Positions 5,890-23,873 of a stretch of DNA of 24,000 bases are shown here, in pieces. The notes under the pieces are model-generated. The model had not been told where the DNA came from. It made no database searches and saw nothing but the letters and a program-made list of their open reading frames with translations. The position numbers and the translations under genes are program-made. Numbering within the stretch: the stretch's first letter is position 1; each line of letters opens with the position of its first letter. Location of the stretch: the NCBI RefSeq assembly GCF_009828925.2, contig NZ_WUTY02000001.1, forward strand, positions 1,060,492 to 1,084,491. The letters run 5' to 3'. The stretch is from Methylicorpusculum oleiharenae. GTDB lineage: Bacteria; Pseudomonadota; Gammaproteobacteria; Methylococcales; Methylomonadaceae.

Positions 5890-6510
5890 CTACTGCCCGC
5901 TTTCCTGTTTAATCAACTGATTCATTACGTTGATCATGTTCTCTTGCGATTTGGCAAGAGGTCCATTCGTTTTATATTTACCATTGATAATAATAGCAGG
6001 TACGCCAGTAATACCATAACGAGGGGCTAAAGCTTTAGCTTGCCGAACTTTGGCATCGACAAGAAAAGAGCCATATGCATTTTTAAAGTCCGCTTCGCTA
6101 ACGCCATGAGAAGTAAAAAATTTAAGCAACGCTTCCTCAGTATCTAAAGTTTGTTTTTTGTTCTGAATGGCATCAAAAAAATCGGCATGAACTTTGTCAA
6201 CAACCCCTAGCGCTTCAGCCGTGAAATAAGCTTTTGCGTGTTTTTCCCATAAGCTGCTAAATACAGCAGGCATACGGATGAACTCAACGTTATCGGGCTT
6301 GCTTTTAAGCCATTTGTTTAAATCGGGCTCCAAATGGTAGCAGTGAGGGCAGCCGTACCAAAAGAACTCAATGATTTCTATTTTGTCAGGATTTTGAGTG
6401 GGCTGTGCCGGACTTATTACTTCGTAGCCCTGATTTTCAGCCTGCAGTAATGTTGAAAAACCTAACAAAAAAAACATAAGCAGTATGTTACGAGTTTTTT
6501 TAATAAGCAT
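5890..6510 (-). CDS. dsbA: Periplasmic thiol:disulfide oxidoreductase DsbA
   Basis: Signal peptide MLIKKTRNILLMFFLLGFSTLLQA. Thioredoxin-fold active site FFWYGCPHCYHLEP. 206 aa. Synteny with cc4/engB/polA. Confidence 0.9.
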   Translation of the reverse strand: MLIKKTRNILLMFFLLGFSTLLQAENQGYEVISPAQPTQNPDKIEIIEFFWYGCPHCYHLEPDLNKWLKSKPDNVEFIRMPAVFSSLWEKHAKAYFTAEALGVVDKVHADFFDAIQNKKQTLDTEEALLKFFTSHGVSEADFKNAYGSFLVDAKVRQAKALAPRYGITGVPAIIINGKYKTNGPLAKSQENMINVMNQLIKQESGQ

Positions 6511-8400: not shown

Positions 8401-11124
8401 CTAATGGGCTTCATCCCAATTATTCCCACTACCTATATCGACAATCAGCGGAACATCAAGTTGAGCCGCCGAGCACATAATCGAGCGAATCCGGTCTACG
8501 CATTGATTTAGATCGGCCGCCGCTATCTCAAAAACCAATTCATCGTGTACTTGCATAATCATTTTGGCATCAGGCTTATCATGTTGAAGCCACTCATCCA
8601 CCGATATCATTGCGCGTTTAATAATATCGGCAGCAGTACCTTGCATAGGTGCGTTGATGGCCGTTCTCTCGGCGTATTGACGGCGAGCGGCATTGCGAGA
8701 ATTAATTTCGGGCAGGTAAAGCCTGCGGCCGAACAAGGTTTCTACATAGCCCTGTTCTTTGGCAACTGCTTTGATTCTTTCCATATACTGTTTTACTCCG
8801 GGATAACGGGCAAAATATAAATCAATATACGATTGGGCCTGACCACGCGACAAGCCGAGCTGTTGCGCTAAGCCGTAAGAAGACATGCCGTAAATCAGCC
8901 CAAAATTGATGGCTTTGGCGGAACGCCTCAAATCCGATGTTACGTGTTCCAATGAAACACCAAAAACCTCAGCCGCCGTGGCACTGTGGATATCCTGTCC
9001 TTGCGAGAATGCTGCCAGTAATCCCGAGTCAGCCGATAAATGGGCCATAATGCGCAGTTCGATTTGGGAGTAATCTGCTGCGACGATTTTATAACCGTCA
9101 GGTGAGATGAATGCCTGGCGGATTCGGCGGCCTTCGCTACTGCGGATCGGGATATTCTGCAGGTTAGGATCCGAGGAAGATAGCCTTCCTGTTGCCGCTA
9201 CCGCCTGGTGGTATGAGGTATGAACCCGGCCAGTTTTGGGGTTGATCTGCTGCGGTAATTTGTCGGTATACGTGGATTTGAGCTTACTCAGGCTACGGTA
9301 GTCCAGAATCAGTTTGGGTAGCGGGTAGTCAATTGCGAGTTCCTGCAGCACCGATTCCTCAGTGGATGGTTGACCTTTGGGCGTCTTTTTGATAACCGGT
9401 ATGTTCATCTGATCATAAATGATCGATTGTATTTGTTTGGGGGAGCCCAGGTTGAAGGTTTTACCGGCCAGATTGTGAGCATGTTGTTCAATGGAAGTAA
9501 TCTGACCGGCCAGTTCCAGGCTGTGTTGAGCCAGCATCGCACAATCAATCAGAACACCCTTTCTTTCGATGCGGGACAAGACACTCAGCAACGGGACTTC
9601 TATGTCCTTATATAACGCCAGCAGCGCGGGTTGCTCTTTCAGTTTAGCGCTGAGAACGTGATGCAGTCTCAGGGTGATATCGGCGTCTTCAGCGGCATAA
9701 GGCGTGGCTTGCTCCAGCGTCACTTCCCGGAATGAAATCTGTTTGACGCCTTTTCCTGTCACATCTTCATAATGAATGGTGGTTAAGCCCAGATACTCTT
9801 TTGCTAAATCGTCCATGTTGTGTTTTGTTGCTGTGCTGTTTAACACATAAGATTCAAGCATCGTATCTTCAGTGATGCCTTTCAGTTCTATGTCGTAATT
9901 GGCGAGTACATTCGCGTCATACTTCAGATTTTGGCCTAGCTTGGATTTTTCAGGGTTTTCGAGGAGCGGACGCAATTTTTCCAATATCGTGGCTCTATCC
10001 AGCTGTTCTGGAACATCCGGATAATCATGCGCTAAGGGTACATAAGCCGCCTTGCCGGATTCTATTGCGAAAGACACACCGACAATTTCTGCCTGACTGT
10101 AGTCCAGACTGGTTGTTTCAGTATCAAATGCAAACAGAGAAGCCTGATTCAATTGTTCAAACCAGCGGTTGAAATCCTGATCAGTCAAAATAGTTTCATA
10201 GTGCCGTTCAACAGGCGGACAATCCTCGATTAAAGTTTCAGGACTGGCTCGACTCACATCGCTGGTGTTGTTCAATTGTTTAAGCCAGGACAAAAGACCG
10301 AGTTCAGTAAGTTGAGATTTTAAATCGTCTTTGTCAATGGGCCTGATTTTCAAATCATCCAATTCATAATGCAAAGGAATATCGCATTTTATCGTCGTCA
10401 GCACTTTTGAAAGAGGCAGCTGATCGATACTGGCGCGCAAATTTTCACCGATTTTTCCGGTTATCTGATCGGCATGGGCTACCAGGTTTTCCAGTGTTCC
10501 GTATTCAGTCAGCCATTTGGCGGCCGTTTTCGGACCCACCTTGGGTACGCCTGGAATGTTATCAACGCTGTCCCCCATTAACGCTAGATAATCAATGATT
10601 TGTTCAGGCTTTACGCCGAATTTTTCGATCACCCCTTGAATATCGGTGCGAGTATTGGACATGGTATTGTCCAGCGTAATGTGGTCCGATACTAATTGTG
10701 CCATGTCTTTATCGCCCGTCGAGATGACGACTTTGAAATCGCGCTGTTCAGCTTGCCGGGCAAGCGCTCCGATAACGTCATCGGCTTCAACGTCCGGTTC
10801 CATGATTAACGGTAAGCCCATACATTGTATCAGCCGATGCAGCGGTTCGATTTGCACCCTTAAATCATCAGGCATAGTCGGCCGGTGGGCTTTATATTGA
10901 TCAAATAAGTCATGACGGAAGGTTTTTCCCGGGGCATCGAAAATTACCGCAATGTATTCGGTTGGGTAATCATTCATTAACTTGCGCAGCATGTTCGTCA
11001 CACCGTAAATCGCATTGGTCGGTAACCCTTGAGGACTGGTCAATGGCGGTACCGCATGATAAGCGCGAAACAAAAATGAGGAACCGTCGATAAGAACTAG
11101 ATAGGGTGATTGCTGTTGAGACAT
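8401..11124 (-). CDS. polA: DNA polymerase I
   Basis: 907 aa. 5'-3' exonuclease N-terminus (LVLIDGSSFLFRAYHA). 3'-5' exonuclease (FAFDTETTSL). Polymerase motifs (DYSQIELRIMAH, RRSAKAINFGLIYGMS, QVHDELVFE). Confidence 0.97.
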   Translation of the reverse strand: MSQQQSPYLVLIDGSSFLFRAYHAVPPLTSPQGLPTNAIYGVTNMLRKLMNDYPTEYIAVIFDAPGKTFRHDLFDQYKAHRPTMPDDLRVQIEPLHRLIQCMGLPLIMEPDVEADDVIGALARQAEQRDFKVVISTGDKDMAQLVSDHITLDNTMSNTRTDIQGVIEKFGVKPEQIIDYLALMGDSVDNIPGVPKVGPKTAAKWLTEYGTLENLVAHADQITGKIGENLRASIDQLPLSKVLTTIKCDIPLHYELDDLKIRPIDKDDLKSQLTELGLLSWLKQLNNTSDVSRASPETLIEDCPPVERHYETILTDQDFNRWFEQLNQASLFAFDTETTSLDYSQAEIVGVSFAIESGKAAYVPLAHDYPDVPEQLDRATILEKLRPLLENPEKSKLGQNLKYDANVLANYDIELKGITEDTMLESYVLNSTATKHNMDDLAKEYLGLTTIHYEDVTGKGVKQISFREVTLEQATPYAAEDADITLRLHHVLSAKLKEQPALLALYKDIEVPLLSVLSRIERKGVLIDCAMLAQHSLELAGQITSIEQHAHNLAGKTFNLGSPKQIQSIIYDQMNIPVIKKTPKGQPSTEESVLQELAIDYPLPKLILDYRSLSKLKSTYTDKLPQQINPKTGRVHTSYHQAVAATGRLSSSDPNLQNIPIRSSEGRRIRQAFISPDGYKIVAADYSQIELRIMAHLSADSGLLAAFSQGQDIHSATAAEVFGVSLEHVTSDLRRSAKAINFGLIYGMSSYGLAQQLGLSRGQAQSYIDLYFARYPGVKQYMERIKAVAKEQGYVETLFGRRLYLPEINSRNAARRQYAERTAINAPMQGTAADIIKRAMISVDEWLQHDKPDAKMIMQVHDELVFEIAAADLNQCVDRIRSIMCSAAQLDVPLIVDIGSGNNWDEAH

Positions 11125-11169: not shown

Positions 11170-13281
11170 TCAGGTTTTGCGCTTAACTGCAGTGATGGTG
11201 GGCAATTGACTGATCCTGCTCAGCACCTGGCTCAGTTGAGCGGTATTTTCAATCAGAATTGACATATACAATATCGCAGATAAATCGGTATGAGTTCTCA
11301 ATGACGCATCAGTAATATGAACTTTTGATTGGAACAAAATCTGCGAGACATCGTTTAACAGGGTTTGGCTATTATAAGCATGGATAACGATGGGCACGAT
11401 ATGGCGGGTTTGCTGCCCACTATTCCACTCGGCAGCAATGAGCTGTAACTTCTTTTCCGGATCAAGTGCCAAGATATTAGGGCAATTGCGGCGGTGGATG
11501 GTAATACCTCTTTTATGAGAAATAAAACCAATAATATTGTCTCCTTTGACAGGAGAGCAGCATTTTGCAAGCGATGTTTCAATGTTGTCGATACCGCCGA
11601 CAGTTATTTGTGACCTGGGCAGGTTTTTTTGGGGACTGTATCTTAGCTGTGCGGGTTCCAGTTCAGGTATTTGCAGCGCATGAGCGATTTGTTGAACACT
11701 GATGTCACCGCGGCCCAAGGATTCAAAAAAGAAGTTGCTATCTTCCATTTTGAAATGCTTAATCAATTCGTCGAGGTTCAGTGCTTTAACCCCCAGACGT
11801 TTCACTTCCTTATCTAATAGCTGTTTACCGATAGTGATGTTTTCGCATTGCTTTTGTTGCTTAAACCAGCTTTTTACTTTACTGATGGCACGGGATGTTT
11901 TCAGATAGCCCAAGCTGGGATCTATCCAGTTCAGATTGGGGTAACCGTTTTTGACGGTGATAATTTCTACCCGTTGGCCGGATTTAAGCTGATAGGTAAG
12001 CGGTCTTATCTGGCCGTCAACTTTAGCTCCGCGGCAGCTATGCCCGATCTCCGTGTGGATGGCATAAGCAAAGTCCAGTGGTGTGGCTCCTTTGATCAGG
12101 TCAACCAGTTTTCCCGCTGGAGTTAATACAAACACTCTATCGGTGAATAATTCAGTACGGAAATTTTCGATCAGAATGGCATTATTATCACGCTCATCGA
12201 GAAGCTTACGCAATGAAGCAATGTTTTTTGCGGTTGCAGCATTGTGCTGACTGCCTTCTTTATAACGCCAATGGGCTGCCACACCGAGTTCAGCAAATTC
12301 ATGCATATCGCGTGTCCGGATTTGGACTTCTATCCGGTTTCCCTGAGTATCAAGAATGACAGTATGCAAAGACTGATAGCCATTTTCTTTGGGGTTTGCT
12401 ATGTAATCATCAAATTCTTTAGGGATGTATTGCCAAAGGCTGTGCACCAGCCCTAGTACTGAATAACAGGTAGCCATATTGTCAACGATAACGCGCACGG
12501 CCAACAGGTCGTACAAATCTTCAAACGCCAGATTTTTCCGGAACATTTTGTTCCAAATGCTGTAGATGTGTTTAGGCCTTCCATAAACCTTGGCGTTAAT
12601 ATGTTCATTTTCCAGCGCTTGAGATAATGTTTCTTTGAAGGATTGAATACAGGCTTCCCGCTGATTCCTGTTGTCCGCCAGAGACTTTGCAATGAAGCGG
12701 TAGTTTTGAGGATCAAGATAACGGAAAGCCAGGTCTTCCAATTCCCATTTGAATTGATTTATCCCCAGCCGGTTTGCCAGTGGCGCGTAAATATCCAGTG
12801 ATTCTTGCGCAATAAAACGGCGCATATCGTAATCTTCACTGTGAAGATTACGTAACCTTTGAATACGGTATGCAAGTTTAATCAGTACCGCCCGGACATC
12901 ATGGGTCATGGCCAGCAACATTCGCCGTAATATCTCTGCCTGATTGGGCTGATTGGCCATTTCCAGGTTGTATACGGTTAATTTGTTAAGCCAGTTGACA
13001 TCTTTAACAAGGGCGGCGACGATCGAGCCGAATTTTTTTTCAATGTCAGGTTCGCTAATACGTCCAGCGATACGCGAGTCGCTAAGGAGAGCGGCCAAAA
13101 TGGTCTCCACATCGATGTGTACTGCCATCAATATCATGGCTACATCAATCCCTCTGGGCCTGAGGCTGGGCGGGCTCGCATCAGTCTGACTGACAATGGC
13201 GAGAGCCTTCTCTATTTTCAGCGAATCGGTTTGCGAAAAGCCGCTCATCAATTGCTGAACTGAAATTATAGTTTTGTCCAT
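11170..13281 (-). CDS. relA: GTP pyrophosphokinase, RelA-type (p)ppGpp synthetase
   Basis: 703 aa. Synthetase core (YGRPKHIYSIWNKM, LLAVRVIV, GYQSLHTV, EVQIRTRDMHEFAELGVAAHWRYKE). TGS region (VFVLTPAGKLVDLIKGATPLDFAYAIHTEIG). C-terminal ACT-like region. The N-terminal pseudo-hydrolase lacks the SpoT HD motif (AALLSD). Confidence 0.9.
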   Translation of the reverse strand: MDKTIISVQQLMSGFSQTDSLKIEKALAIVSQTDASPPSLRPRGIDVAMILMAVHIDVETILAALLSDSRIAGRISEPDIEKKFGSIVAALVKDVNWLNKLTVYNLEMANQPNQAEILRRMLLAMTHDVRAVLIKLAYRIQRLRNLHSEDYDMRRFIAQESLDIYAPLANRLGINQFKWELEDLAFRYLDPQNYRFIAKSLADNRNQREACIQSFKETLSQALENEHINAKVYGRPKHIYSIWNKMFRKNLAFEDLYDLLAVRVIVDNMATCYSVLGLVHSLWQYIPKEFDDYIANPKENGYQSLHTVILDTQGNRIEVQIRTRDMHEFAELGVAAHWRYKEGSQHNAATAKNIASLRKLLDERDNNAILIENFRTELFTDRVFVLTPAGKLVDLIKGATPLDFAYAIHTEIGHSCRGAKVDGQIRPLTYQLKSGQRVEIITVKNGYPNLNWIDPSLGYLKTSRAISKVKSWFKQQKQCENITIGKQLLDKEVKRLGVKALNLDELIKHFKMEDSNFFFESLGRGDISVQQIAHALQIPELEPAQLRYSPQKNLPRSQITVGGIDNIETSLAKCCSPVKGDNIIGFISHKRGITIHRRNCPNILALDPEKKLQLIAAEWNSGQQTRHIVPIVIHAYNSQTLLNDVSQILFQSKVHITDASLRTHTDLSAILYMSILIENTAQLSQVLSRISQLPTITAVKRKT

Positions 13282-15199: not shown

Positions 15200-15322
15200 G
15201 TTTATTAAAAAACGGTTTGTTGTTGAGAGAAATAGATAAATCATCTCGGGCATATATAAGTCATTTGTCTGAAATTCTTCTTTTGTGGTAAAAGTCATTA
15301 AAAATATCAGGAATAACATCTT

Positions 15323-15766
15323 ATGTTGGCCAAAGAAGACCTGTTGGAAATTGAGCGGATGGTGGAGCAAATAATTGCCAGGCAGCCTGATGTAAAAAAT
15401 AATGCCAACGTACGATATGAGTTAGACCTCAGAGAGCGGACCGTAAGAGTTGAAGAAGAGTTGAAACACCAGCGAGACCTGATGATAAAAGGTTTCGATG
15501 CAATGGAAAAGCGGTTCGAACAGATGGAAAAACGTTTCGAGCAAGTTGATAAACGATTTGAGCAGGTCGATAAACGTTTTGAACAGGTTGATAAGCGATT
15601 TGAGCAAGTTGATAAGCGTTTCGAACTTGTGGATAAACGGTTTGAAGAAATGCGCAAAGATATGAATACAGGTTTTATGGAAATGAATCGAAGGTTGGAT
15701 CGATTGATGTATTGGACATTAGGCTTAGTCGTTTCCGCTACCCTGCTCGTCATCAATTTTAAGTAA
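15323..15766 (+). CDS. Tail-anchored coiled-coil protein with seven tandem heptad repeats ((M/V)(E/D)KRFEQ); function unknown
   Basis: 147 aa. AGGAA lies 9 nt before the ATG. MEKRFEQ x2, VDKRFEQ x3, VDKRFEL, VDKRFEE. A single C-terminal hydrophobic segment, WTLGLVVSATLLVINF, ends one residue before the stop. Co-directional with comEA and rfaH. Confidence 0.75.
   Translation: MLAKEDLLEIERMVEQIIARQPDVKNNANVRYELDLRERTVRVEEELKHQRDLMIKGFDAMEKRFEQMEKRFEQVDKRFEQVDKRFEQVDKRFEQVDKRFELVDKRFEEMRKDMNTGFMEMNRRLDRLMYWTLGLVVSATLLVINFK
15503..15649 (+). repeat. Seven tandem 21-bp in-frame repeat units
   Basis: Units start at 15503, 15524, 15545, 15566, 15587, 15608 and 15629. They differ mostly at synonymous third positions. 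Confidence 0.95.
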
Positions 15767-15803
15767 ACCCATTGCATCAGGTTTCTTATAACTCCCCAAT
15801 AAC

Positions 15804-16295
15804 ATGACGTGGCATGTCATACATACCAAGCCTCGGCAAGAAAATCGAGCGCTTGAAAACTTGGCAAGGCAAGGATTTCGGTGTTATTTGCCAACATTTA
15901 AAGCTGAACGAATTAGGCGAGGGCAAATATACATTGGTATCGAACCTTTGTTTCCCCGCTATTTGTTTATCTGTTCGGATAATGGATTGAATTGGAACGC
16001 CATTCGATCTACCAAAGGCGTGCAGGCATTGGTTTCTTTCGGTGGAGAAATTGCAAAAGTCGACGATCAGCTAGTTGATGTTTTGCAAAATGTTGAAAAT
16101 AATTTGAAGACGGGTGAGCCTGATAAATTATTTAATCAGGGTGAAAAAGTACAAATCATCACAGGCCCTTTTTCCGGTATGGAGGCCATTTATCAGATGT
16201 CAGACGGAGAGTCACGGGCTTTGGTTTTGATGGAGTTTCTCGGTAAGCCTACCAAGGCAAAATTTGACATCGTACATTTAAAGAAATCCTGCTAA
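15804..16295 (+). CDS. rfaH: RfaH-like NusG paralog (operon-specific transcription antiterminator)
   Basis: 163 aa (E. coli RfaH is 162 aa). NGN domain: WHVIHTKPRQENRALENLARQG...EPLFPRYLFI...IRSTKGV..LVSFGG. KOW domain: GEKVQIITGPFSGMEAIYQMSDGESRALVLMEFLGK. An ops element lies 180 nt downstream. Confidence 0.85.
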   Translation: MTWHVIHTKPRQENRALENLARQGFRCYLPTFKAERIRRGQIYIGIEPLFPRYLFICSDNGLNWNAIRSTKGVQALVSFGGEIAKVDDQLVDVLQNVENNLKTGEPDKLFNQGEKVQIITGPFSGMEAIYQMSDGESRALVLMEFLGKPTKAKFDIVHLKKSC

Positions 16296-16415
16296 GTTCC
16301 GGATAACAATAAGCCTATGTGCTCTCCATCATAGGTCTTTTACTCCCCCAATTCAGAACTCAATTAACTTCTATCCGTATTGATTATCCCCAATATTTCC
16401 CTTAAGGAAATTCAG

Positions 16416-16424
16416 TGGTATAGT
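16416..16424 (+). promoter_or_regulatory. Candidate extended -10 promoter element (TGGTATAGT) for the ops-containing leader
   Basis: A TGn + TATAGT hexamer lies about 50 nt upstream of the ops element. The -35 is poor (TTTCCC at 17-nt spacing). Confidence 0.3.
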
Positions 16425-16474
16425 GCGTTCAATAGTTGAACAGATTGCCGCGCTTGCTGATCGTGACACAGTAG

Positions 16475-16486
16475 GGCGGTAGCGTG
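16475..16486 (+). promoter_or_regulatory. ops (operon polarity suppressor) element, the core of a JUMPStart sequence and the RfaH recruitment site
   Basis: GGCGGTAGCGTG on the + (non-template) strand matches GGCGGTAGnnTG at every specified position and is identical to the E. coli 12-mer. It lies in a non-coding leader between rfaH and co-directional genes. Confidence 0.8.
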
Positions 16487-16549
16487 TTTTTTGTAAAACA
16501 ATGTAAGATCATCTTAAGCCAAATTCTCGTTCGACATTTTATAACTACA

Positions 16550-16930
16550 ATGGAAAACGACGATAAACCGTCAGGTTCTTTAAACGAAGAAACCCATTTG
16601 CGCGTACTCCGTTTATTGGAAAACAATTCGCAGATGAATCAGCGCGAGTTAGCTGAAAATTTGGGTGTGAGCGTAGGAAAAATCAATTATTGCCTCAAGG
16701 CATTACTTGATCGCGGATTTATCAAAATGCAAAACTTTCGTAATAGTCAAAACCGCATGGCCTATGTGTATTTGTTAACGCCAATGGGAATTGCGCAAAA
16801 AGGGTTGCTGACCAAACGGTTTCTCGATATCAAGCTAGCCGAATACGAAAGTTTGAAGCAAGAGATTGAACTATTGACTAAAGAAGTCGAAATAGTTAAA
16901 TCTTTAGATGATTTTGATAAGTACCAGTAA
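16550..16930 (+). CDS. MarR-family winged-helix regulator of the EPS-associated type (126 aa from ATG 16550)
   Basis: HLRVLRLLENNSQMNQRELAENLGVSVGKINYCLKALLDRGFIKMQNFRNSQNRMAYVYLLTPMGIAQK, followed by a C-terminal coiled coil. It resembles the EPS/exosortase-locus MarR subfamily (TIGR04176, from memory). The ORF-track start at 16484 overlaps the ops element and adds an implausible 22-aa extension, so the start is moved to 16550. Confidence 0.75.
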   Translation: MENDDKPSGSLNEETHLRVLRLLENNSQMNQRELAENLGVSVGKINYCLKALLDRGFIKMQNFRNSQNRMAYVYLLTPMGIAQKGLLTKRFLDIKLAEYESLKQEIELLTKEVEIVKSLDDFDKYQ

Positions 16931-17025
16931 GAAAAGTGCGTATTGCAAAAAATCCAGAAAGTTGCCTGAATGAAGTGTAACGGAACCCGGGTTGTTCGAT
17001 CTCAGTCTCCAAAAATAACCAACTT

Positions 17026-17568
17026 ATGAGCACGCCAAGCGCAGAAGATTTGCCTCATTACACTTACGATGACTATGTGCAATGGGAAGGCCGATGGGAG
17101 CTCATTTACGGACTGGCTCACGCTATGAGTCCTTCACCCAGCATTGCCCATCAGGCAATCAGTCAACACATTGCCAGTCAGTTAGAGCGTGCTTTGGAAT
17201 ATTGCCAGGAATGTCATGCATTACTGCCTGTTGATTGGAAAATTGACGAGGAAACCACGGTCCAGCCAGATAATTTGGTAGTTTGCGGAGAATTGGAAAA
17301 AAGCGCTTATTTAAGCAAAGCTCCTATCTTGATTTTCGAAATTCTTTCCAAAGCCACCGCACACAAGGATCGTACTACCAAATTCAAACTGTACGAGCGG
17401 GAAGGCGTTAAATTTTATGTGATCGTAGATCCCATTGATTCAATTGCCAAGGTCTATCACTTGCAGGAGGGCCGGTACATCAAGATGCTGGATGCCAGCA
17501 AAGAGAGCATTGAGCTTGACCTAGGAAAATGTGGAATTCAGTTCGATTTTTCCAAAATATGGATATAA
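17026..17568 (+). CDS. Uma2-family (DUF820) PD-(D/E)xK putative endonuclease
   Basis: 180 aa. YTYDDYVQWEG.WELIYG...MSPSPSIAHQ...VQPDNLVV...APILIFEILSKATAHKDRTTKFKLYEREGVKFYVIVDP fits the Uma2 pattern (D...E-x-K core: PD, EILS, K). Confidence 0.75.
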   Translation: MSTPSAEDLPHYTYDDYVQWEGRWELIYGLAHAMSPSPSIAHQAISQHIASQLERALEYCQECHALLPVDWKIDEETTVQPDNLVVCGELEKSAYLSKAPILIFEILSKATAHKDRTTKFKLYEREGVKFYVIVDPIDSIAKVYHLQEGRYIKMLDASKESIELDLGKCGIQFDFSKIWI

Positions 17569-17719
17569 ATCAGGCATAAGCAAGCAGCCTGAATGGAGTA
17601 AAGATGGAATCCAGGTTGTTCGGAGCAATGACCATCCGTTTAGCAGGCTGTTGAAATTTGCCGATATACCTTCGGTTTCGACGCCATTTTTTGAAGCGCC
17701 GGGTGGTCTGGAAGCCTGA

Positions 17720-18883
17720 TTAAGCCTCAAAAACCGGTTTTAGCCGGTTATATTCGCCCCGAAGGGGGTTAAACTCCGCCTTTTGGCGGATTTTAGGCAC
17801 ACTACCGCCTAAGCAGTACTGTAACGCCAGCCGAAAATGGCGCCTATAAGCGGCAAAAGTAAATATTGTTTGCGCGGCGACCTTCTTCAAGCCCCGAAAT
17901 TTGGTTTGCCGTAGCGGGCCGACGGTTTTGGCCCAGCCGAAGACTTCTTCGATCCGCTTACGGATTTTGAGGCTTTTGCGATAGCCGTCGTGCCGCGTGG
18001 TACGACGATCGATGGCCGAGCCTTTGTCCTTGCTGGCGACATGCGGGGTGACCTTGCGCTGGCGCATGGCGGCGACAAAGTTTTGGGTGTCGTAGTTTTT
18101 ATCGGCACCCAAGGTTGCGCCGGGTTTATGGATTGTCCGCTTGACCATGGTTTCGGCCGCCTCGCGTTCCGCTGTGCCGGTGGCCTGGGTGACTTCGACG
18201 TCGACCACCAAACCGTTACGATTCTCCATCAAGGCATGACCGAGGAACGCCAACTGCGACTTGTCGCCCTCGCTCTTTTTGTACAGCCGAGCCTCAGGAT
18301 CGGTGGTCGAGGCGTGAGTTTCGTTGCTACGCTTCTCGCCCTTGAAGTTGACCGTGGGGTTGCGACCGCCATCTTCCGGCGGCGGGGTCGAGCCGTCTTT
18401 CTTAACGAAACTCTTGTGCGAGGCCCAGGCCTGAATCAGGGTGCCGTCCACAGAGAAGTGCTCGTCGGAGACCAAATTCTTCCAGTCCGCCAAGGCCAGA
18501 ACCCGCTCGAAAAACAAACGGGTGATGCGCTCGTTCAGCAAGCGGTCGCGGTTGGCGCTGAAGGTGGAGTGATCCCATACGGCGTCGTCCATGGTCAAGC
18601 CGACGAACCAGCGGTACAGCAGGTTGAAGTCGATATGCTCTACCAACTGCCGCTCCGAGCGTATGGAAAACAGGACTTGCAACAAACTGGCGCGGAGTAA
18701 GCGCTCCGGAGGAATGGAATCCCGGCCGCGGCGTGCGTAGAGTGCGTCGAACTCGTCATCCAGCGTGGCGAGCAACAGATCGACCACTTTGCGCAGCTTG
18801 CGGAGCGGATGCTTTTGCGGAATCCTCGCTTCCAGGGTTCGGTAACTGAATAGTTCTTCTTGAGTGATGTCGGTGCCGCGCAT
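17720..18883 (-). CDS. IS5-family (DDE, InsH-like N-terminal domain) transposase, apparently intact
   Basis: 387 aa. MRGTDITQEELFSYRTLEARIPQKHPLRKLR...SIPPERLLRASLLQVLFSIRSERQLVEHIDFNLLYRWFVGL, then the DDE region ...HFSVDGTLIQAWAS...GADKNYD...IEEVFGWAKTVGPLRQTKFRGLKKV. Much higher GC than its flanks. Confidence 0.85.
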   Translation of the reverse strand: MRGTDITQEELFSYRTLEARIPQKHPLRKLRKVVDLLLATLDDEFDALYARRGRDSIPPERLLRASLLQVLFSIRSERQLVEHIDFNLLYRWFVGLTMDDAVWDHSTFSANRDRLLNERITRLFFERVLALADWKNLVSDEHFSVDGTLIQAWASHKSFVKKDGSTPPPEDGGRNPTVNFKGEKRSNETHASTTDPEARLYKKSEGDKSQLAFLGHALMENRNGLVVDVEVTQATGTAEREAAETMVKRTIHKPGATLGADKNYDTQNFVAAMRQRKVTPHVASKDKGSAIDRRTTRHDGYRKSLKIRKRIEEVFGWAKTVGPLRQTKFRGLKKVAAQTIFTFAAYRRHFRLALQYCLGGSVPKIRQKAEFNPLRGEYNRLKPVFEA

Positions 18884-18890
18884 GGAATCA
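17720..18890 (-). mobile_element. IS5-family insertion sequence (minimum extent; termini not resolved)
   Basis: A sharp GC shift: 37 of 60 nt are G/C in the line starting at 18361, and the shift ends within a few nt of the transposase ATG at 18883. I could not identify convincing terminal inverted repeats or a target-site duplication by eye. The low-coordinate end may lie anywhere in 17569-17719. Confidence 0.6.
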
Positions 18891-19104
18891 ATGCAAATTA
18901 TTGATGATAGAACTATTTTACCATGTATAACAATGCCTTATGAATTAATCTCGCGATTAATTTAACGAAGCAATGCGGCTTGCTGAGGAGATAAAATCAA
19001 CAGCCTGTTAGGATTGACAAGTAGCGGCAAGTAGACATATTGAGCATTCTTTTCCGGATTACAATTCGCTTTATCCAGGCTTCGTTTGAGCTGGGTATCA
19101 ATTT

Positions 19105-20507
19105 TATAACTAGATCTGGTGTACAGCCCGGCTTGAAGAGAGGTGGCGTTCTCTGCTGAAATAAGATTACCGAGATTGAATAACAGCACTAATGAAAAAC
19201 GCCATTAACAAAGATAAAGCAAAAGAGTGGGGAAATACAGAGGCAATTATCGATCCTTTGACTGATTTGTTGCGAACCGGGGCCAAGGCCTTGATCCAAC
19301 AGGCGATTTAAGCCGAGTTGCAAGCGTTTTTGAGTGACTATACTAAGGTCACTGATCTGCAGGGCCGTTTAACTGTGGTGCGCAATGGTTATTTGCCCGA
19401 ACGGGGGATCGTCACCGGTGTGGGTAATGTGACGGTCAAAATTCCCAAAGTGCGGGATCGCTCCGGCGGCGGGGTTAAATTCAACTCAACCCTCGTGCCA
19501 CCCTATGTGCGCAAAGCTCAACGCGTGGCAGCGGCCTTGCCTTGGCTGTACTTACATGGCATTTCCACCGGCGACATACAAGAGACCTTGTCGGTACTGG
19601 TGGGTGACGAGGCCAAAGGTTTGTCGCCGGCGGTGGTAAGTCGCTTAAAAGCCCAATGGGCTGAGGACTACAAAACCTGGAATAACCGAGATTTAGCGAA
19701 GGAACGCTATGTCTACGTGTGGGCGGATGGTATTTATTCGACCCTGCGCGGCGAGGATGATCGACTGTGCTTATTGGTCATCATCGGCGTCAACGAACAA
19801 GGTGAAAAGCGCTTGCTGGCCTTATCGGACGGTTATCGGGAATCAAAAGCGTCCTGACTGAGTGTCTTACAAGATATGCAAGCTTGCGGCTTATAGGAAG
19901 CGCCGAAACTGGCCACCGGCGACGGCGCATTGGGTTTCTGGGCGGCCATCAACGAGGCTTGGCCGACGACACGGCATCAACGGTGTTGGGTGCATAAGAC
20001 GGCGAATGTGTTGGCGGCGCTACCCGATTCTATCCAAGGTAAAGCCAATGCCGGATTAAAAGAAATCTGGATGGCCGAAACTAAAGTTCAGGCGGAAACA
20101 GCCTTCGACAGCTTCCAGCGTAACTTTGAAGCCAAGTATCCCAAGACAGTGGGAGTGCTGGCAAAAGATCGCGAATCACTCTTGGCTTTTTACGACTTTC
20201 CCGCTGAGCATTGGCTACACATTCGGACGACTAATCCGATTGAATCCAGCTTTGCGACGTTTCGCCATCGGACCACGCGCACTAAAAACTGCGTCTCGCG
20301 CACTACCTTGATGGGATTGGTGTTTCAATTGGCGCTGACGGCCGAGAAGAGTTGGCGCAAGATACAGGGTTTTAAACGAATACCGGAAGTGATTGAGGGC
20401 ATCCGTTTCCAGGACGGCATTGCCATTATTACGGAGGCAGAGAAAATAGAAGAAACGCAGCAGATGGCCGCCTAATTCAAATGGGTGATACACCAGATTT
20501 GACTATA
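19105..20507 (+). mobile_element. IS256-family insertion sequence with candidate imperfect terminal inverted repeats
   Basis: 19105-19129 (TATAACTAGATCTGGTGTACAGCCC) against the reverse complement of 20483-20507 (TATAGTCAAATCTGGTGTATCACCC) gives 18/25 matches, including a perfect ATCTGGTGTA core. The 1.4-kb size is typical of the family. No flanking direct repeat was found. Confidence 0.6.
19192..20475 (+). pseudogene. IS256-family (Mutator-type) transposase interrupted by three in-frame stop codons
   Basis: A single frame reads MKNAINKDKAKEWGNTEAIIDPLTDLLRTGAKALIQQAI*AELQAFL...VVRNGYLPERGIVTG...GYRESKAS*LSVLQDMQACGL*EAPKLATGDGALGFWAAINEAWPTTRHQRCWVHKTANVL...TTNPIESSFATFRHRT. The stops are TAA 19309-19311, TGA 19855-19857 and TAG 19894-19896. 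There are no frameshifts. Confidence 0.85.
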
Positions 20508-20789
20508 GCTCTGAATTAATTAACTAAATAGCTTTAAAAAACGGCATAATTTTTAAAAATCTATCCTCAACTACTGTAATAGCTTGCGCATTTGTAATAT
20601 CAAAATGCATGATTACAGGGAGGTTGTACGAGAATACGAGTTTCAAAATTTATAACACAGTATATAGTGCCAAAATTTAAAATAGATACTACTAATTATG
20701 CTAGTTTATTCAAGTTTCCCATTCTCGGACAAGCTCCTAAATCAGACCCCATCTGTTCTTTTCAGGATGTGTTATTGAATGGCTAGGCA

Positions 20790-22169
20790 ATGACATTTAC
20801 TACATTTAATTGGTGGCTGTGTTTACCCGCGTTTTTAAGGAATAGGATAGTGCATCGTCCCGAACTGCAAAAAATACTCGCCAACACCAGCTGGCTTTTT
20901 GTCGACCGTCTTTTGCGCATGGGGATTGGCTTGCTGGTTGGTATATGGGTGGCGCGTTATTTAGGGCCGGAGCAATTTGGTTTAATTAATTATACCACGG
21001 CATTTGTGGCGTTGTTCGGAGCGATTGCCGGATTGGGTCTTAATAGCATAGTGGTGAGAGACTTAATCAAGACTCCGGAAACCGCTGTTTTAACCATGGG
21101 TACAGCATTCATGCTGCAGGTTTTCGGTGGTTTCTTAGCGGCGATTCTTGCAATAGTATCTATTGATTTTGTTAGACCTGGTGACGAATTAATCAAACTC
21201 ATGGTGACTATACTTAGTTTATCGATGCTATTCAAAGCCGCCGATGTAGTGAAACTCTATTTTGAAGCTCAAGTTGAGTCAAAATATTCTGTTTGGGTTG
21301 AGAACAGTGTTTTTCTGATTTTTGCAGTCGCGAGAGTGGTACTCATTGTCCATCATGCGCAGTTGATTGTTTTTGTTTGGATCATCCTTGGCGAAGGTAT
21401 AGCCATTGCAGTTGGCTTAATGGTCATGTTCGCCATTCGGATTGGTCGATTGCGGACCTGGCAAAATAATTTCCAGAGAGCCAAAGAGCTGCTCAACGAT
21501 AGTTGGCCGCTTATTCTGTCGGGCCTAACCATATCGTTGTACATGCGCGTTGATCAGATCATGCTGGGGCAAATGCTGGGAGAAGAAACTGTCGGCATTT
21601 ATAGCGCCGCTGTCCGTATCAGCGAAGTCTGGTATTTCATACCGATAGCCATTGTTAATTCGGTATTTCCTACGCTGATAGAAACGAAAAAACAGAGCAA
21701 TGTACTGTATTTTCAGCGATTACAAAAACTTTACGATTTAATGGTATTCCTGGCCTTGATCGTGTCGGTTCCAATGACCTTTATGGCTGATTGGCTAGTA
21801 ATAGTTTTGTTTGGTCAAGCTTACGCGCAAGCTGGAACCGTGCTTGCGATTCATATATGGACAGGTGTTTTTGTTTTTTTCGGAGTAACCAGCAGTAAAT
21901 GGTTTTTAATCGAAAATATGCAAACTAGTGCTTTTTATCGAACAACGCTAGGTTTAATCGTAAATATTGCCGCAAATTTTCTCTTGATACCTTTATACGG
22001 AGGCAAGGGAGCTGCTATTGCGTCGCTAATATCGCAAGTGACAGCAGCTTATTTGTTTGATGGTATCAATAAAAATACTAGACGCTCTTTTTTACTTAAA
22101 TCGGCGGCAATGTTACCGTTTATTCCAGCAATTCGAAGGAGAGCTTGTCAAGATGATGTTACTGCTTAA
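20790..22169 (+). CDS. wzx: Wzx-like polysaccharide/O-unit flippase (MOP/PST family)
   Basis: 459 aa, polytopic with about 12 hydrophobic segments. N-terminal NTSWLFVDRLLRMGIGLLVGIWVARYLGPEQFGLINY is characteristic of polysaccharide-biosynthesis (Polysacc_synt) transporters. Confidence 0.75.
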   Translation: MTFTTFNWWLCLPAFLRNRIVHRPELQKILANTSWLFVDRLLRMGIGLLVGIWVARYLGPEQFGLINYTTAFVALFGAIAGLGLNSIVVRDLIKTPETAVLTMGTAFMLQVFGGFLAAILAIVSIDFVRPGDELIKLMVTILSLSMLFKAADVVKLYFEAQVESKYSVWVENSVFLIFAVARVVLIVHHAQLIVFVWIILGEGIAIAVGLMVMFAIRIGRLRTWQNNFQRAKELLNDSWPLILSGLTISLYMRVDQIMLGQMLGEETVGIYSAAVRISEVWYFIPIAIVNSVFPTLIETKKQSNVLYFQRLQKLYDLMVFLALIVSVPMTFMADWLVIVLFGQAYAQAGTVLAIHIWTGVFVFFGVTSSKWFLIENMQTSAFYRTTLGLIVNIAANFLLIPLYGGKGAAIASLISQVTAAYLFDGINKNTRRSFLLKSAAMLPFIPAIRRRACQDDVTA

Positions 22170-22938
22170 ATTATACAGTTACTTATTCGCAAGAAAATCA
22201 TTTTATAAATTACATAAGCTGCTTTATTACTGCAGTCTAAGTGGTTTGGGAGTATTGAATTCCAGTAACGATAAAGTTAGCGGTGAAGCTGAATTTGTTA
22301 AAAGATATTTTAAGAATAGGCCGGCCGGTGTCGTATTGGACGTTGGAGCCAATATAGGCAATTACTCAAAGAGCCTCTTGGCGACAAATCCGGCCATTTC
22401 TATCTATGCGTTTGAGCCGCATCCATTGACTTTTCTAAAGTTAAAAGAAAACATAAATGCCGAAAACTTTCATGCTGTTAATGCTGCTGTTGGTGCGCAG
22501 ACTGGCGTGTTGTCGCTATATGATTATCAAGATAATGATGGCTCTTCTCATGCCTCTCTTTACCAGGATGTAATTGAGAATATTCATAATTCTAAAGCTA
22601 TTGAACATAAAGTTAATGTTATTACGCTTAGTGATTTTATTGAATCAAACAATATTGATAAAATTGCATTGCTCAAGATTGATACTGAAGGTAATGAGCT
22701 CAATGTGCTTAAAGGTGTCACTAAACAGTTGGAAGCAGGAAAGATATCGGCAATCCATTTTGAGTTTAATGAGATGAATGTGGCAAGCAGAACATATTTC
22801 TGGGATTTCTGGGATTTGTTGCCGAATTTTGATTTTTATCGTCTTCTGCCTAATGACATGGTTAAAATAGAAAAATATAAGCCGGTTTTTTGTGAAATAT
22901 TTGCTTATCAAAATATTGTCGCCATTTTGAAGTCTTAA
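22153..22938 (+). CDS. FkbM-family SAM-dependent methyltransferase (261 aa from ATG 22153)
   Basis: VVLDVGANIGNYS...IYAFEPHPLTFLKLKENI...LLKIDTEGNELNVLKG...FEFNEMN. AGGAG lies about 13 nt upstream of ATG 22153. The ORF-track start at 22057 would overlap wzx by 113 nt. Confidence 0.8.
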   Translation: MMLLLKLYSYLFARKSFYKLHKLLYYCSLSGLGVLNSSNDKVSGEAEFVKRYFKNRPAGVVLDVGANIGNYSKSLLATNPAISIYAFEPHPLTFLKLKENINAENFHAVNAAVGAQTGVLSLYDYQDNDGSSHASLYQDVIENIHNSKAIEHKVNVITLSDFIESNNIDKIALLKIDTEGNELNVLKGVTKQLEAGKISAIHFEFNEMNVASRTYFWDFWDLLPNFDFYRLLPNDMVKIEKYKPVFCEIFAYQNIVAILKS

Positions 22939-22952
22939 CTAGTTTAGATATT

Positions 22953-23873
22953 GTGGCAACTAATACATCACCCATTGCATTATTTGTTTACAACCGGCCT
23001 AAACATACCCGTGAAACAGTCGAGGCTTTGCTCAAGAATGCCGAGGCTGTGCATTCTGATCTGTTTATTTTCTCAGATGCAGCAAAGCATGAAGGTGCTC
23101 AATCGGCAGTCAATGAGGTTAGGGCGTTGATACACCAGATAACCGGGTTTAAGACTATCACGATTATAGAGCGCGAGAAAAACTGGGGTCTCGCAAACTC
23201 AATCATAGACGGTGTGACAGCGATATGTGATAAGTATGGTAGGGCTATTGTACTTGAAGATGACTTGATTTTTAGTGAGCATTTTCTTGGCTACATGAAC
23301 TCAGCGCTGAATATGTATGAAGATAATCAACTGGTTTGGCATATAAGTGGGTGGAATTACCCTATTGAGCCATCTGGACTAGGTGATGCATTTTTCTGGA
23401 AAACAATGAATTGCTGGGGCTGGGCTACATGGGCAAATAGATGGAATAAATTCTCCAAAAAACCTGACGAGATGATCAGAAGCTGGACGCCGCAAAAAAT
23501 CAATGCATTTAACCTGGATGGGACGTACAACTTTTGGCGTCAAGTAAAGTTGAATCGAAAAGGTAAGATTAATACTTGGGCAGTTTTCTGGTATGCGACG
23601 ATTTTTTCGCATGGTGGTTTGTGTCTTAATCCTACATCCTCATATGTCATGAATGTTGGTCATGATGGCACAGGCGAAAATTGCCGAAATTCTGATCATT
23701 TTTCGATGCATCAGATAATTAATAAAAAACAAGATATAGACTTGCCTGAGTTGGTTAGCGTCTCAGATGATGCTATATGTCGTATAAAAAGCTTTTTGGA
23801 TAAACACGCAAGGCAAAACCTAGCTATATATTGGTTAAGAAAAATTCAAATGATCAGCGAGACTTATTTTTAG
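22953..23873 (+). CDS. Putative GT-A-fold glycosyltransferase (GTG start)
   Basis: 306 aa. IALFVYNRPKHTRETVEALLKN...LFIFSDAAK...NWGLANSIIDGV...AIVLEDDLIFSEHFL is an N-terminal Rossmann-like nucleotide-sugar domain with an acidic EDD motif. It sits in a glycan-gene context. The family assignment is tentative. Confidence 0.6.
   Translation: MATNTSPIALFVYNRPKHTRETVEALLKNAEAVHSDLFIFSDAAKHEGAQSAVNEVRALIHQITGFKTITIIEREKNWGLANSIIDGVTAICDKYGRAIVLEDDLIFSEHFLGYMNSALNMYEDNQLVWHISGWNYPIEPSGLGDAFFWKTMNCWGWATWANRWNKFSKKPDEMIRSWTPQKINAFNLDGTYNFWRQVKLNRKGKINTWAVFWYATIFSHGGLCLNPTSSYVMNVGHDGTGENCRNSDHFSMHQIINKKQDIDLPELVSVSDDAICRIKSFLDKHARQNLAIYWLRKIQMISETYF

Follow-up and report, generated by a model that had tools for sequence, protein, structure and literature searches.

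Recruitment of RfaH at ops is the best-understood case of sequence-specific loading of a transcription elongation factor, and it has been characterized almost only in enteric bacteria. In Escherichia coli, the sites lie in the ops/JUMPStart leaders of rfb, waa, kps, hly, and tra. We describe here a locus in a 24,000-nucleotide (nt) stretch of the Methylicorpusculum oleiharenae genome (contig NZ_WUTY02000001.1, positions 1,060,492 to 1,084,491, forward strand; below, the window), in which a gene for an RfaH protein of the same NCBIfam subfamily is followed by an identical ops 12-mer. The 12-mer ends an element with the 39-nt layout of the E. coli JUMPStart leaders, found in the same place, the predicted 5′ leader of surface-polysaccharide operons. 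Judged from sequence, it is likely that RfaH loads at this site (16475-16486) and that the locus is a linked cassette of factor and site. Unlike the arrangement in E. coli, rfaH genes of this type sit 100 to 200 nt upstream of the site, all five pairs of the JUMPStart stem are changed, and the Rfam model RF01707 gives 16 bits in the window, compared to 60 in E. coli. The protein itself is only about 31 to 36% identical to E. coli RfaH, carries the changes H20 to N and R73 to K, and is predicted by AlphaFold2 (AF2) without the alpha-hairpin state.

The RfaH/ops mechanism is already known, and both proteins of the locus, RfaH and a MarR-family EPS-associated regulator (MarR_EPS), are routinely annotated. 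In the survey of Wang et al. (mBio, 2020; PMC7593976), rfaH genes of clusters CL2 to CL8 neighbor envelope-biogenesis genes and those of CL4 neighbor a helix-turn-helix transcriptional regulator; recruitment was understood for E. coli RfaH only, and no ops or JUMPStart element was reported between rfaH and the regulator. The window, with rfaH, marR_EPS, and glycan genes, resembles the CL4 pattern in its gene neighborhood. On the IncX plasmids, according to PMC11880322, the RfaH-like factor PrfaH is encoded beside an ops-like site that it uses, located downstream of prfaH's own promoter on a conjugative plasmid whose transfer genes are controlled. The window differs in that its site follows rfaH, is chromosomal, and stands ahead of regulator and glycan genes; the PrfaH order is approached by L014 and L067, two Zoogloeaceae loci in which the element precedes rfaH. 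The PrfaH structure 9ik0 is a weak structural match to the model of the window protein. Bacteroides UpxY and Bacillus LoaP are likewise specialized NusG paralogs linked to the polysaccharide or secondary-metabolite operon that they serve; the window protein falls below the cut-offs of both families, and to our knowledge neither system uses an ops DNA element. No description of the cassette was found in the literature searched, the coverage of which was incomplete; within it, the linkage of rfaH to a canonical ops, the divergent JUMPStart element with its compensated stem, and the palindrome linked to MarR_EPS appear to be undescribed.

An RfaH-subfamily gene is followed by an exact ops site

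The open reading frame (ORF) ending at 16295 encodes an RfaH-subfamily NusG paralog. Its product exceeds both RfaH equivalog cut-offs (TIGR01955, 157.8 bits with a cut-off of 144.5; NF006534, 128.8 with a cut-off of 124) and stays below those of the rival families (NusG, 54.4 versus 135.7; UpxY, 72 versus 100; LoaP, 59 versus 125). The Pfam NusG NGN domain covers residues 1 to 93, and a phmmer alignment to 5ond/2oug bore out, for residues 2 to 153, the collinearity with E. coli RfaH that had been proposed for this 163-amino-acid (aa) protein. The nearest homologs, at 94% and 88% identity, come from metagenome-assembled genomes (MAGs) annotated as Methylomicrobium and Methylicorpusculum, followed by a second, betaproteobacterial tier at 50 to 56%; an exact-protein look-up returned no record identical to the window RfaH.

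The interval from 16296 to 16549 was recounted at the claimed 254 nt and is noncoding up to the ATG at 16550 (Table 1). It holds the exact ops match that had been reported, 64 nt ahead of that ATG, with a conserved extended -10 upstream. The position and strand of the site stood, and the distance needed correction: from the stop codon of rfaH to the first G of ops there are 179 nt, not 180. The pause within ops is placed at 16485 by analogy with E. coli ops biochemistry. The pattern GGCGGTAGNNTG has two exact matches in the window, compared to 0.00 in 100 dinucleotide-preserving shuffles, and about 0.05 ops-consensus matches per window would be expected by chance.

The second exact match, GGCGGTAGTGTG at 17798-17809 on the minus strand, falls within the transposase ORF of an IS5-family insertion sequence (IS), where it covers codons G-G-S-V (aa 359 to 362 of 387). 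It faces out of the IS toward the Uma2 and marR genes, antisense to them, and lacks the JUMPStart 5′ half. From this context it is probably fortuitous.

Table 1. Coordinates of the rfaH-ops locus and neighboring features in the window (TSS, transcription start site)
Feature	Position	Strand	Details
rfaH	15804-16295	+	163-aa NGN+KOW elongation factor, RfaH subfamily; TAA, 16293-16295
Weak hairpin	16313-16341	+	GCCTATG...CATAGGT then CTTTT; after rfaH; possible leaky intrinsic terminator
TGn-extended -10	16416-16424	+	TGGTATAGT; TGnNAnnnT motif; predicted TSS near 16431
Palindrome	16427-16441	.	GTTCAATAGTTGAAC (GTTCA-N5-TGAAC); over predicted TSS; candidate MarR_EPS operator
JUMPStart-like element	16448-16486	+	39 nt; ops 12-mer is its 3′ end
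Element, box	16448-16454	+	CCGCGCT
Element, stem 5′ side	16455-16459	+	TGCTG
Element, loop	16460-16468	+	ATCGTGACA
Element, stem 3′ side	16469-16473	+	CAGTA
Element, spacer	16474	+	G
ops	16475-16486	+ (nontemplate strand)	GGCGGTAGCGTG; exact match to GGCGGTAGnnTG; predicted pause T16485 (U11)
marR_EPS	16550-16930	+	MarR-family EPS-associated regulator; first gene after ops; TIGR04176, 152 bits (cut-off 88)
Uma2-family gene	17026-17568	+	Putative endonuclease; Pfam PF05685, 91.5 bits; after marR in L001 and L002
IS5-family element	17641-19010	-	Transposase 17720-18883; NF033581, 272 bits; inverted repeats 17641-17654 and 18997-19010
IS256-family element	19105-20507	+	Frameshifted transposase; ORFs 19318-19857 and 19930-20475 are two halves of NF033543; inverted repeats 19105-19123 and 20489-20507
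Wzx-type flippase	20790-22169	+	Pfam/NCBIfam matches
FkbM methyltransferase	ends 22938	+	Pfam/NCBIfam matches
Glycosyltransferase-like ORF	22953-23873	+	Pfam/NCBIfam matches

rfaH and ops are linked across beta- and gammaproteobacteria

The comparison covered 80 loci with genes for RfaH homologs, each species represented by a single genome, and 744 kb in total. An exact ops is present in 39 of the 80 (39 sites in 744 kb, where about 1.4 would be expected from ten fixed bases on two strands), on the strand of rfaH in every case (39/39) and, in 35 of the 39, between 86 and 191 nt past the rfaH stop codon, a range that includes the 179 nt of the window. Eight more loci carry a site with one mismatch, 170 to 254 nt past the stop, and in L032, L036, and L048 ops lies 1 to 4 kb downstream of rfaH. 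Conservation of the 12-mer in orthologous leaders, on which the original prediction had been made to depend, was thus strongly positive. In about twenty of the 80 loci, no element was found in the DNA fetched.

Metagenome contigs, scanned by exact pattern with a degenerate 31-mer of the element, gave at least 120 matches. Among the matches listed, an rfaH homolog ends within 450 nt upstream of the element in 72 of the 93 with enough upstream sequence (77%), and rfaH lies elsewhere on the contig in 5 of the 93. The factor and its presumptive recruitment site are therefore neighbors whether one starts from rfaH or from the element, as had been claimed for the window; the linkage runs both ways yet is not absolute, which leaves room for further targets in trans. 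The cassette of rfaH and ops is found again, at the head of surface-sugar operons, in well over a hundred sequences from beta- and gammaproteobacteria, and the 39-nt element is shared by Methylococcales and Betaproteobacteria with RfaH proteins only about 50% identical.

Some loci depart from this order. In two Zoogloeaceae MAGs, the element lies just upstream of rfaH (L014, ops at 3864 and rfaH start at 3975; L067, 39-mer at 5894 and rfaH start at 6001), so that the gene closest behind the RfaH loading site is rfaH itself; the ops of L067 carries T6 to C. In L019 (6643-6681), 145 nt past rfaH, the 27-nt JUMPStart 5′ half is intact and ops is broken after GGCGGTA; this element looks like a decayed or recombined copy.

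The ops site ends a divergent JUMPStart-type element

Over the leaders, the consensus of the element is CCGCGCTTGCTGATCGTGAAACGGCAT-GGCGGTAGCGTG. In 44 orthologous leaders, the ops columns are invariant or nearly so, most of the 27 nt on their 5′ side are conserved at 80 to 98%, and conservation falls off on both flanks. The layout, 7+5+9+5+1+12 = 39 nt, is equal in the window, in the Rfam JUMPstart consensus, and in the E. coli rfb leader. Set against the Rfam consensus, CAGCGcA-cUGGu-AGCUG.UAA-gCCAg-G-GGCGGUAGCGUG, the window reads CCGCGCU-UGCUG-AUCGUGACA-CAGUA-G-GGCGGUAGCGUG; the box agrees at 5 of 7 positions. The clade consensus of the loop, AUCGUGAAA, shares 5 of 9 positions with that of E. 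coli rfb, AGCUGUAAA (A-C---AAA), and the window loop, with a C at its eighth position, shares 4 of 9.

All five stem pairs of the window differ on both sides from the enterobacterial consensus, with pairing kept. For the clade, 97.2% of 215 stem cells are paired, compared to 15 to 65% when the 3′ partner is slid, and the changes are mostly one-sided and compatible, with one pair appearing as U-G, U-A, or C-G; a single nonstandard A-G and no C-A were seen there. A larger RNA structure of the leader was considered and dropped, RNAalifold giving -6 kcal/mol with little covariation for a 68-column alignment, and the 5-bp stem alone was retained.

At gathering thresholds, an Rfam scan of the whole window returned no family, and at relaxed E-values it gave a local 16-bit JUMPstart match and a spurious snoRNA match; by comparison, RF01707 gives 60 bits for the leader of E. 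coli rfb, which lies between galF and rfbB. The original designation as a JUMPStart element is therefore upheld for the layout, the stem-loop, and the 3′ ops and fails for the Rfam RF01707 threshold (16 bits versus 35). We conclude, on layout and sequence, that the 39 nt form a divergent JUMPStart-type element that escapes the Rfam model and is not, by the Rfam threshold, a member of RF01707.

The predicted pause base U11 lies 12 nt beyond the last base on the 3′ side of the stem, the spacing that would be expected for a nascent-RNA hairpin that stabilizes a pause. The E. coli ops pause is classed as backtrack type, not hairpin type, which speaks against such a role.

A conserved putative promoter motif and a candidate operator precede the element

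Among leaders that carry MarR_EPS, a TGnNAnnnT motif stands 11 to 12 nt before the palindrome in L001, L002, L008, L013, L018, L050, L058, and many metagenome loci. It reads TGGTATAGT in the window, TGGTATATT in L001, TGCTATAGT in L002, TGTTATAGT in L013 and L018, and TGCTACAGT in L008, and Betaproteobacteria have TGGCACAAT and TGGCATAAT. These forms agree with TGn followed by a -10 that has A-11 and T-7. Given that the -10 hexamer ends at 16424, a TSS would be expected near 16431, inside the palindrome, and ops at about +45; the extended -10 and the depth of ops in the transcript had been predicted in just this way, and the near-fixed offset of the motif from the palindrome is consistent with both. 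A sigma-54 promoter, suggested by the betaproteobacterial TGGCAC before the palindrome, was rejected: the GG is not kept in Methylococcales (TGT, TGC, or TGA), and the -12 GC is absent.

The palindrome is the only exact GTTCR-N5-YGAAC in the 24-kb window. Of the ops leaders, 20 of the 22 with MarR_EPS behind them contain it, as does 1 of the 21 without (Fisher, 5e-9), and the lone exception, L026, is a scoring artifact, a MarR gene being present there. The metagenome loci repeat the association (41/57 versus 6/39 among the matches listed; p = 3.6e-8). The palindrome also occurs ahead of MarR_EPS genes that have no ops, in L031, L041, and L078 and as a second copy in L032. Since it tracks the MarR_EPS gene and not ops, the palindrome is probably an autoregulatory MarR_EPS operator lying over the predicted TSS.

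MarR_EPS is the next gene after ops in about 22 genome loci and is downstream of the element in 68 of the 111 metagenome matches listed that are informative on that side. In the ORF track it began at a GTG at 16484, inside ops. Moving its start to the ATG at 16550, as had been done in the original prediction, is supported by the homologous ATGs at ops+75 in L001 and ops+77 in L002, by the upstream frame of L002, which stops short of ops, and by the TIGR04176 model, which starts at residue 12 of the ATG-16550 protein; the sequence comparison thus favors this ATG as the correct start. Lack of a Shine-Dalgarno sequence was considered as a possible mark of RfaH control: none precedes marR_EPS, and the same is true of the first gene after ops in about ten lineages; it is also missing from about half of the well-supported genes of the window, including rfaH, polA, and spoT.

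Between rfaH and the promoter, the weak hairpin of Table 1 may partly insulate rfaH from the ops-led unit. The minimum free energy fold of 16296-16350 is -9.7 kcal/mol, and a consensus terminator scan did not report the hairpin.

Residues and predicted fold of the RfaH protein

E. coli RfaH is said to contact ops through K10, H20, R23, Q24, and R73, and three of these, K10, R23, and Q24, are kept as K9, R22, and Q23 in the window. For the E. coli autoinhibition residues named in PMC7593976 and PMC13015549 (E48, R138, L142, F130, and I93), the equivalents of E48, R138, and L142 are kept, F130 is Y, and I93 is V.

An AF2 model was built on a shallow alignment of the 66 sequences of the clade; it has a pLDDT of 91.3 and folds the C-terminal domain into a beta-barrel. 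For proteins that switch folds, AF2 predictions are not reliable. Over its full length, the model is matched best in the PDB by structures of RfaH on the elongation complex, 6c6s_D (TM 0.74, 167 columns) and 8phk_P, with TM values of 0.72 to 0.75, and autoinhibited RfaH structures align with it over the N-terminal domain only. In a 2026 preprint (PMC13015549), RfaHs predicted in the beta form (AF2-beta) adjoin long operons and work without ops, whereas AF2-alpha homologs work in trans via ops; that analysis was confined to the E. coli-like RfaH cluster. In the present clade, linkage in cis and an AF2-beta prediction go together with a canonical ops that is invariant.

Surface-polysaccharide genes and mobile elements around the leader

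Behind ops, relatives carry closely spaced co-directional genes, surface-polysaccharide operons by their content: a sample of ten post-ops genes included sugar epimerases/dehydratases, UDP-sugar dehydrogenases (Ugd), ABC exporters, mannose-1-phosphate guanylyltransferase (ManC), and asparagine synthase (AsnB). Sugar-nucleotide, export, and glycan genes are the class served by RfaH in enterics. In the window, by gene content, the glycan genes at 20790-23873 are the presumed distal targets of the ops leader. The cassette had been placed at the head of a regulator-plus-glycan region; the regulator and the glycan genes are there, and their contiguity is not, as two IS elements intervene.

The gene order rfaH-marR_EPS-Uma2 is kept in the lineage of the window (L001 and L002), and the DNA beyond is variable. 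The MAG contig L001 matches the window at 93% identity as far as the left inverted repeat of IS5 (17641) and is unrelated beyond. In L002 (9094-10528), HepT/MNT-type toxin-antitoxin genes, two HepT-like and one nucleotidyltransferase, lie downstream of marR-Uma2. The region downstream of marR-Uma2 is an accessory-gene hot spot. The fraction of G+C is 0.51 to 0.56 in the IS elements and 0.36 to 0.42 in the glycan genes, with core genes at about 0.44. An AT-rich intergenic segment of about 100 nt (20512-20617), between the end of IS256 and wzx, is repeated in L002 at 10514-10602 and 12281-12384 with 76 to 81% identity.

Upstream of rfaH are ugd, spoT, polA, and c-di-GMP genes. Just before rfaH, two ORFs overlap almost fully (15307-15777, minus strand, and 15323-15766, plus strand), a pair kept in L001 and L002; the plus-strand product has weak coiled-coil-type matches only.

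Discussion

Taken with the equivalog scores, the conservation of ops, and the conserved -10, the interpretation first proposed for this locus, an RfaH-like factor encoded beside its own ops loading site, is supported on sequence grounds. One can picture the following course. The rfaH gene would supply the RfaH-subfamily NusG paralog, and a sigma-70 promoter with the TGn-extended -10 would start a transcript near 16431, probably gated by MarR_EPS binding to the palindrome in an autoregulatory manner. RNA polymerase would reach the 39-nt JUMPStart-type element after transcribing about 45 nt and pause at U11 of its canonical ops, where the exposed nontemplate strand would recruit RfaH. RfaH would then exclude NusG, suppressing Rho-dependent polarity, and transcription could run through marR_EPS into the long surface-polysaccharide genes beyond.

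Several observations weigh against this picture. Two of the five residues that contact ops are changed, H20 to N19 (N being invariant in 66 clade members) and R73 to K71. The C-terminal domain is modeled as a beta-barrel and not as the autoinhibited alpha-hairpin of E. coli RfaH, and this is the state that PMC13015549 ties to ops-independent action. About 40% of the rfaH homolog loci have no nearby element, and, among the matches listed, upstream stretches of 900 nt or more are free of rfaH for 16 of 93 elements. RF01707 scores fall below the gathering score of 35 both in the window (16.0 bits, with only the ops end aligned) and in L009 (13.8). Finally, the leader of this strain is separated from the wzx cluster by two mobile elements, IS5 in the opposite orientation and a degraded IS256.

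How far these observations favor other explanations can be judged from the same data. It is possible, if rather unlikely, that the leader is a relic in this strain, IS5 and IS256 having uncoupled the glycan genes and left control over marR_EPS and Uma2 only. Collinearity with L001 does stop at the IS5 boundary (17641), the IS5 transposase is antisense and that of IS256 frameshifted, and about 3.9 kb of nonglycan DNA separates marR from wzx. Nevertheless, the promoter, the palindrome, and the 39-mer are intact and near-identical to those of L001 and L002, and the only plus-strand terminator-like site in 16930-20790 is a consensus match within IS5. RfaH-modified polymerase is, moreover, known to suppress the polarity of insertions of this kind. 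We consider it improbable, more so than decay of the leader, that RfaH of this clade lacks autoinhibition and acts in cis on the neighboring operon, loading while it is being made, with ops mainly a pause or timing signal and not the trigger of an alpha-to-beta switch. The confident beta-barrel and the best full-length matches to polymerase-bound, active RfaH would suit such a protein, as would the tight linkage of rfaH to the element and the beta-fold RfaHs beside long operons that are active without ops (PMC13015549). The full 12-mer is essentially invariant, however, including G5 and T6, the bases contacted by E. coli RfaH, which favors sequence-specific reading over pausing alone. In addition, E48, R138, and L142 are kept and the changes of F130 to Y and I93 to V are conservative, and action in trans is suggested by the 17% of elements (among the matches listed) that have no rfaH next to them; the beta-barrel itself comes from a method that is a poor guide to fold-switchers and from a shallow alignment.

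Conservation in the 27 nt before ops, which include the conserved stem-loop, equals that of ops itself. We know of no requirement of E. coli RfaH for this JUMPStart half, and something else may thus select for it. One could therefore suppose that the 39 nt are a leader RNA or DNA signal for a reader other than RfaH, another protein or RNA processing or stability, and that the linkage to rfaH reflects shared polysaccharide loci only. This seems very improbable: the 12 nt at the 3′ end match, base for base, the RfaH site defined by experiment in E. coli, rfaH adjoins the element in 77% of informative matches (among those listed), and the window scan matched no further Rfam family. Nor does the element depend on MarR_EPS, since 20 ops leaders lack that gene. 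As for the 12-mer being a chance match, the exact consensus inside the IS5 coding region demonstrates that such a match can arise without leader context, yet 0 of 100 shuffles had any exact match, and the site is kept in position and strand across dozens of genomes. That conservation already refutes chance, to which we give practically no weight.

Loading of RfaH at ops therefore remains our preferred reading, and two further ideas can be put forward tentatively, as outside possibilities when taken together. The rfaH-JUMPStart cassette may be an intermediate or ancestral form in RfaH evolution, one that reads a canonical ops, is still encoded beside its target, and is perhaps not autoinhibited, and the JUMPStart hairpin may be a functional nascent-RNA pause hairpin. 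If so, the cassette would be at odds with the proposed sequence of events, with ops recognition and autoinhibition evolving at the same time to serve action in trans, and a pause hairpin would account for the long-unexplained JUMPStart 5′ half.

The presence of the same invariant 12-mer beside rfaH in methanotrophs and many Betaproteobacteria, with RfaH proteins that share only about a third of their residues with that of E. coli, widens the reach of the mechanism, and the natural variants H20N and R73K face an unchanged DNA. The tight linkage of rfaH and ops gives a setting in which the current cis-to-trans model of RfaH evolution can be tested, and the fully compensated hairpin provides comparative evidence for structural selection on the JUMPStart 5′ half. 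The palindrome is a concrete candidate operator for the uncharacterized MarR_EPS family, and the 39-mer flags the heads of surface-polysaccharide operons in environmental genomes.

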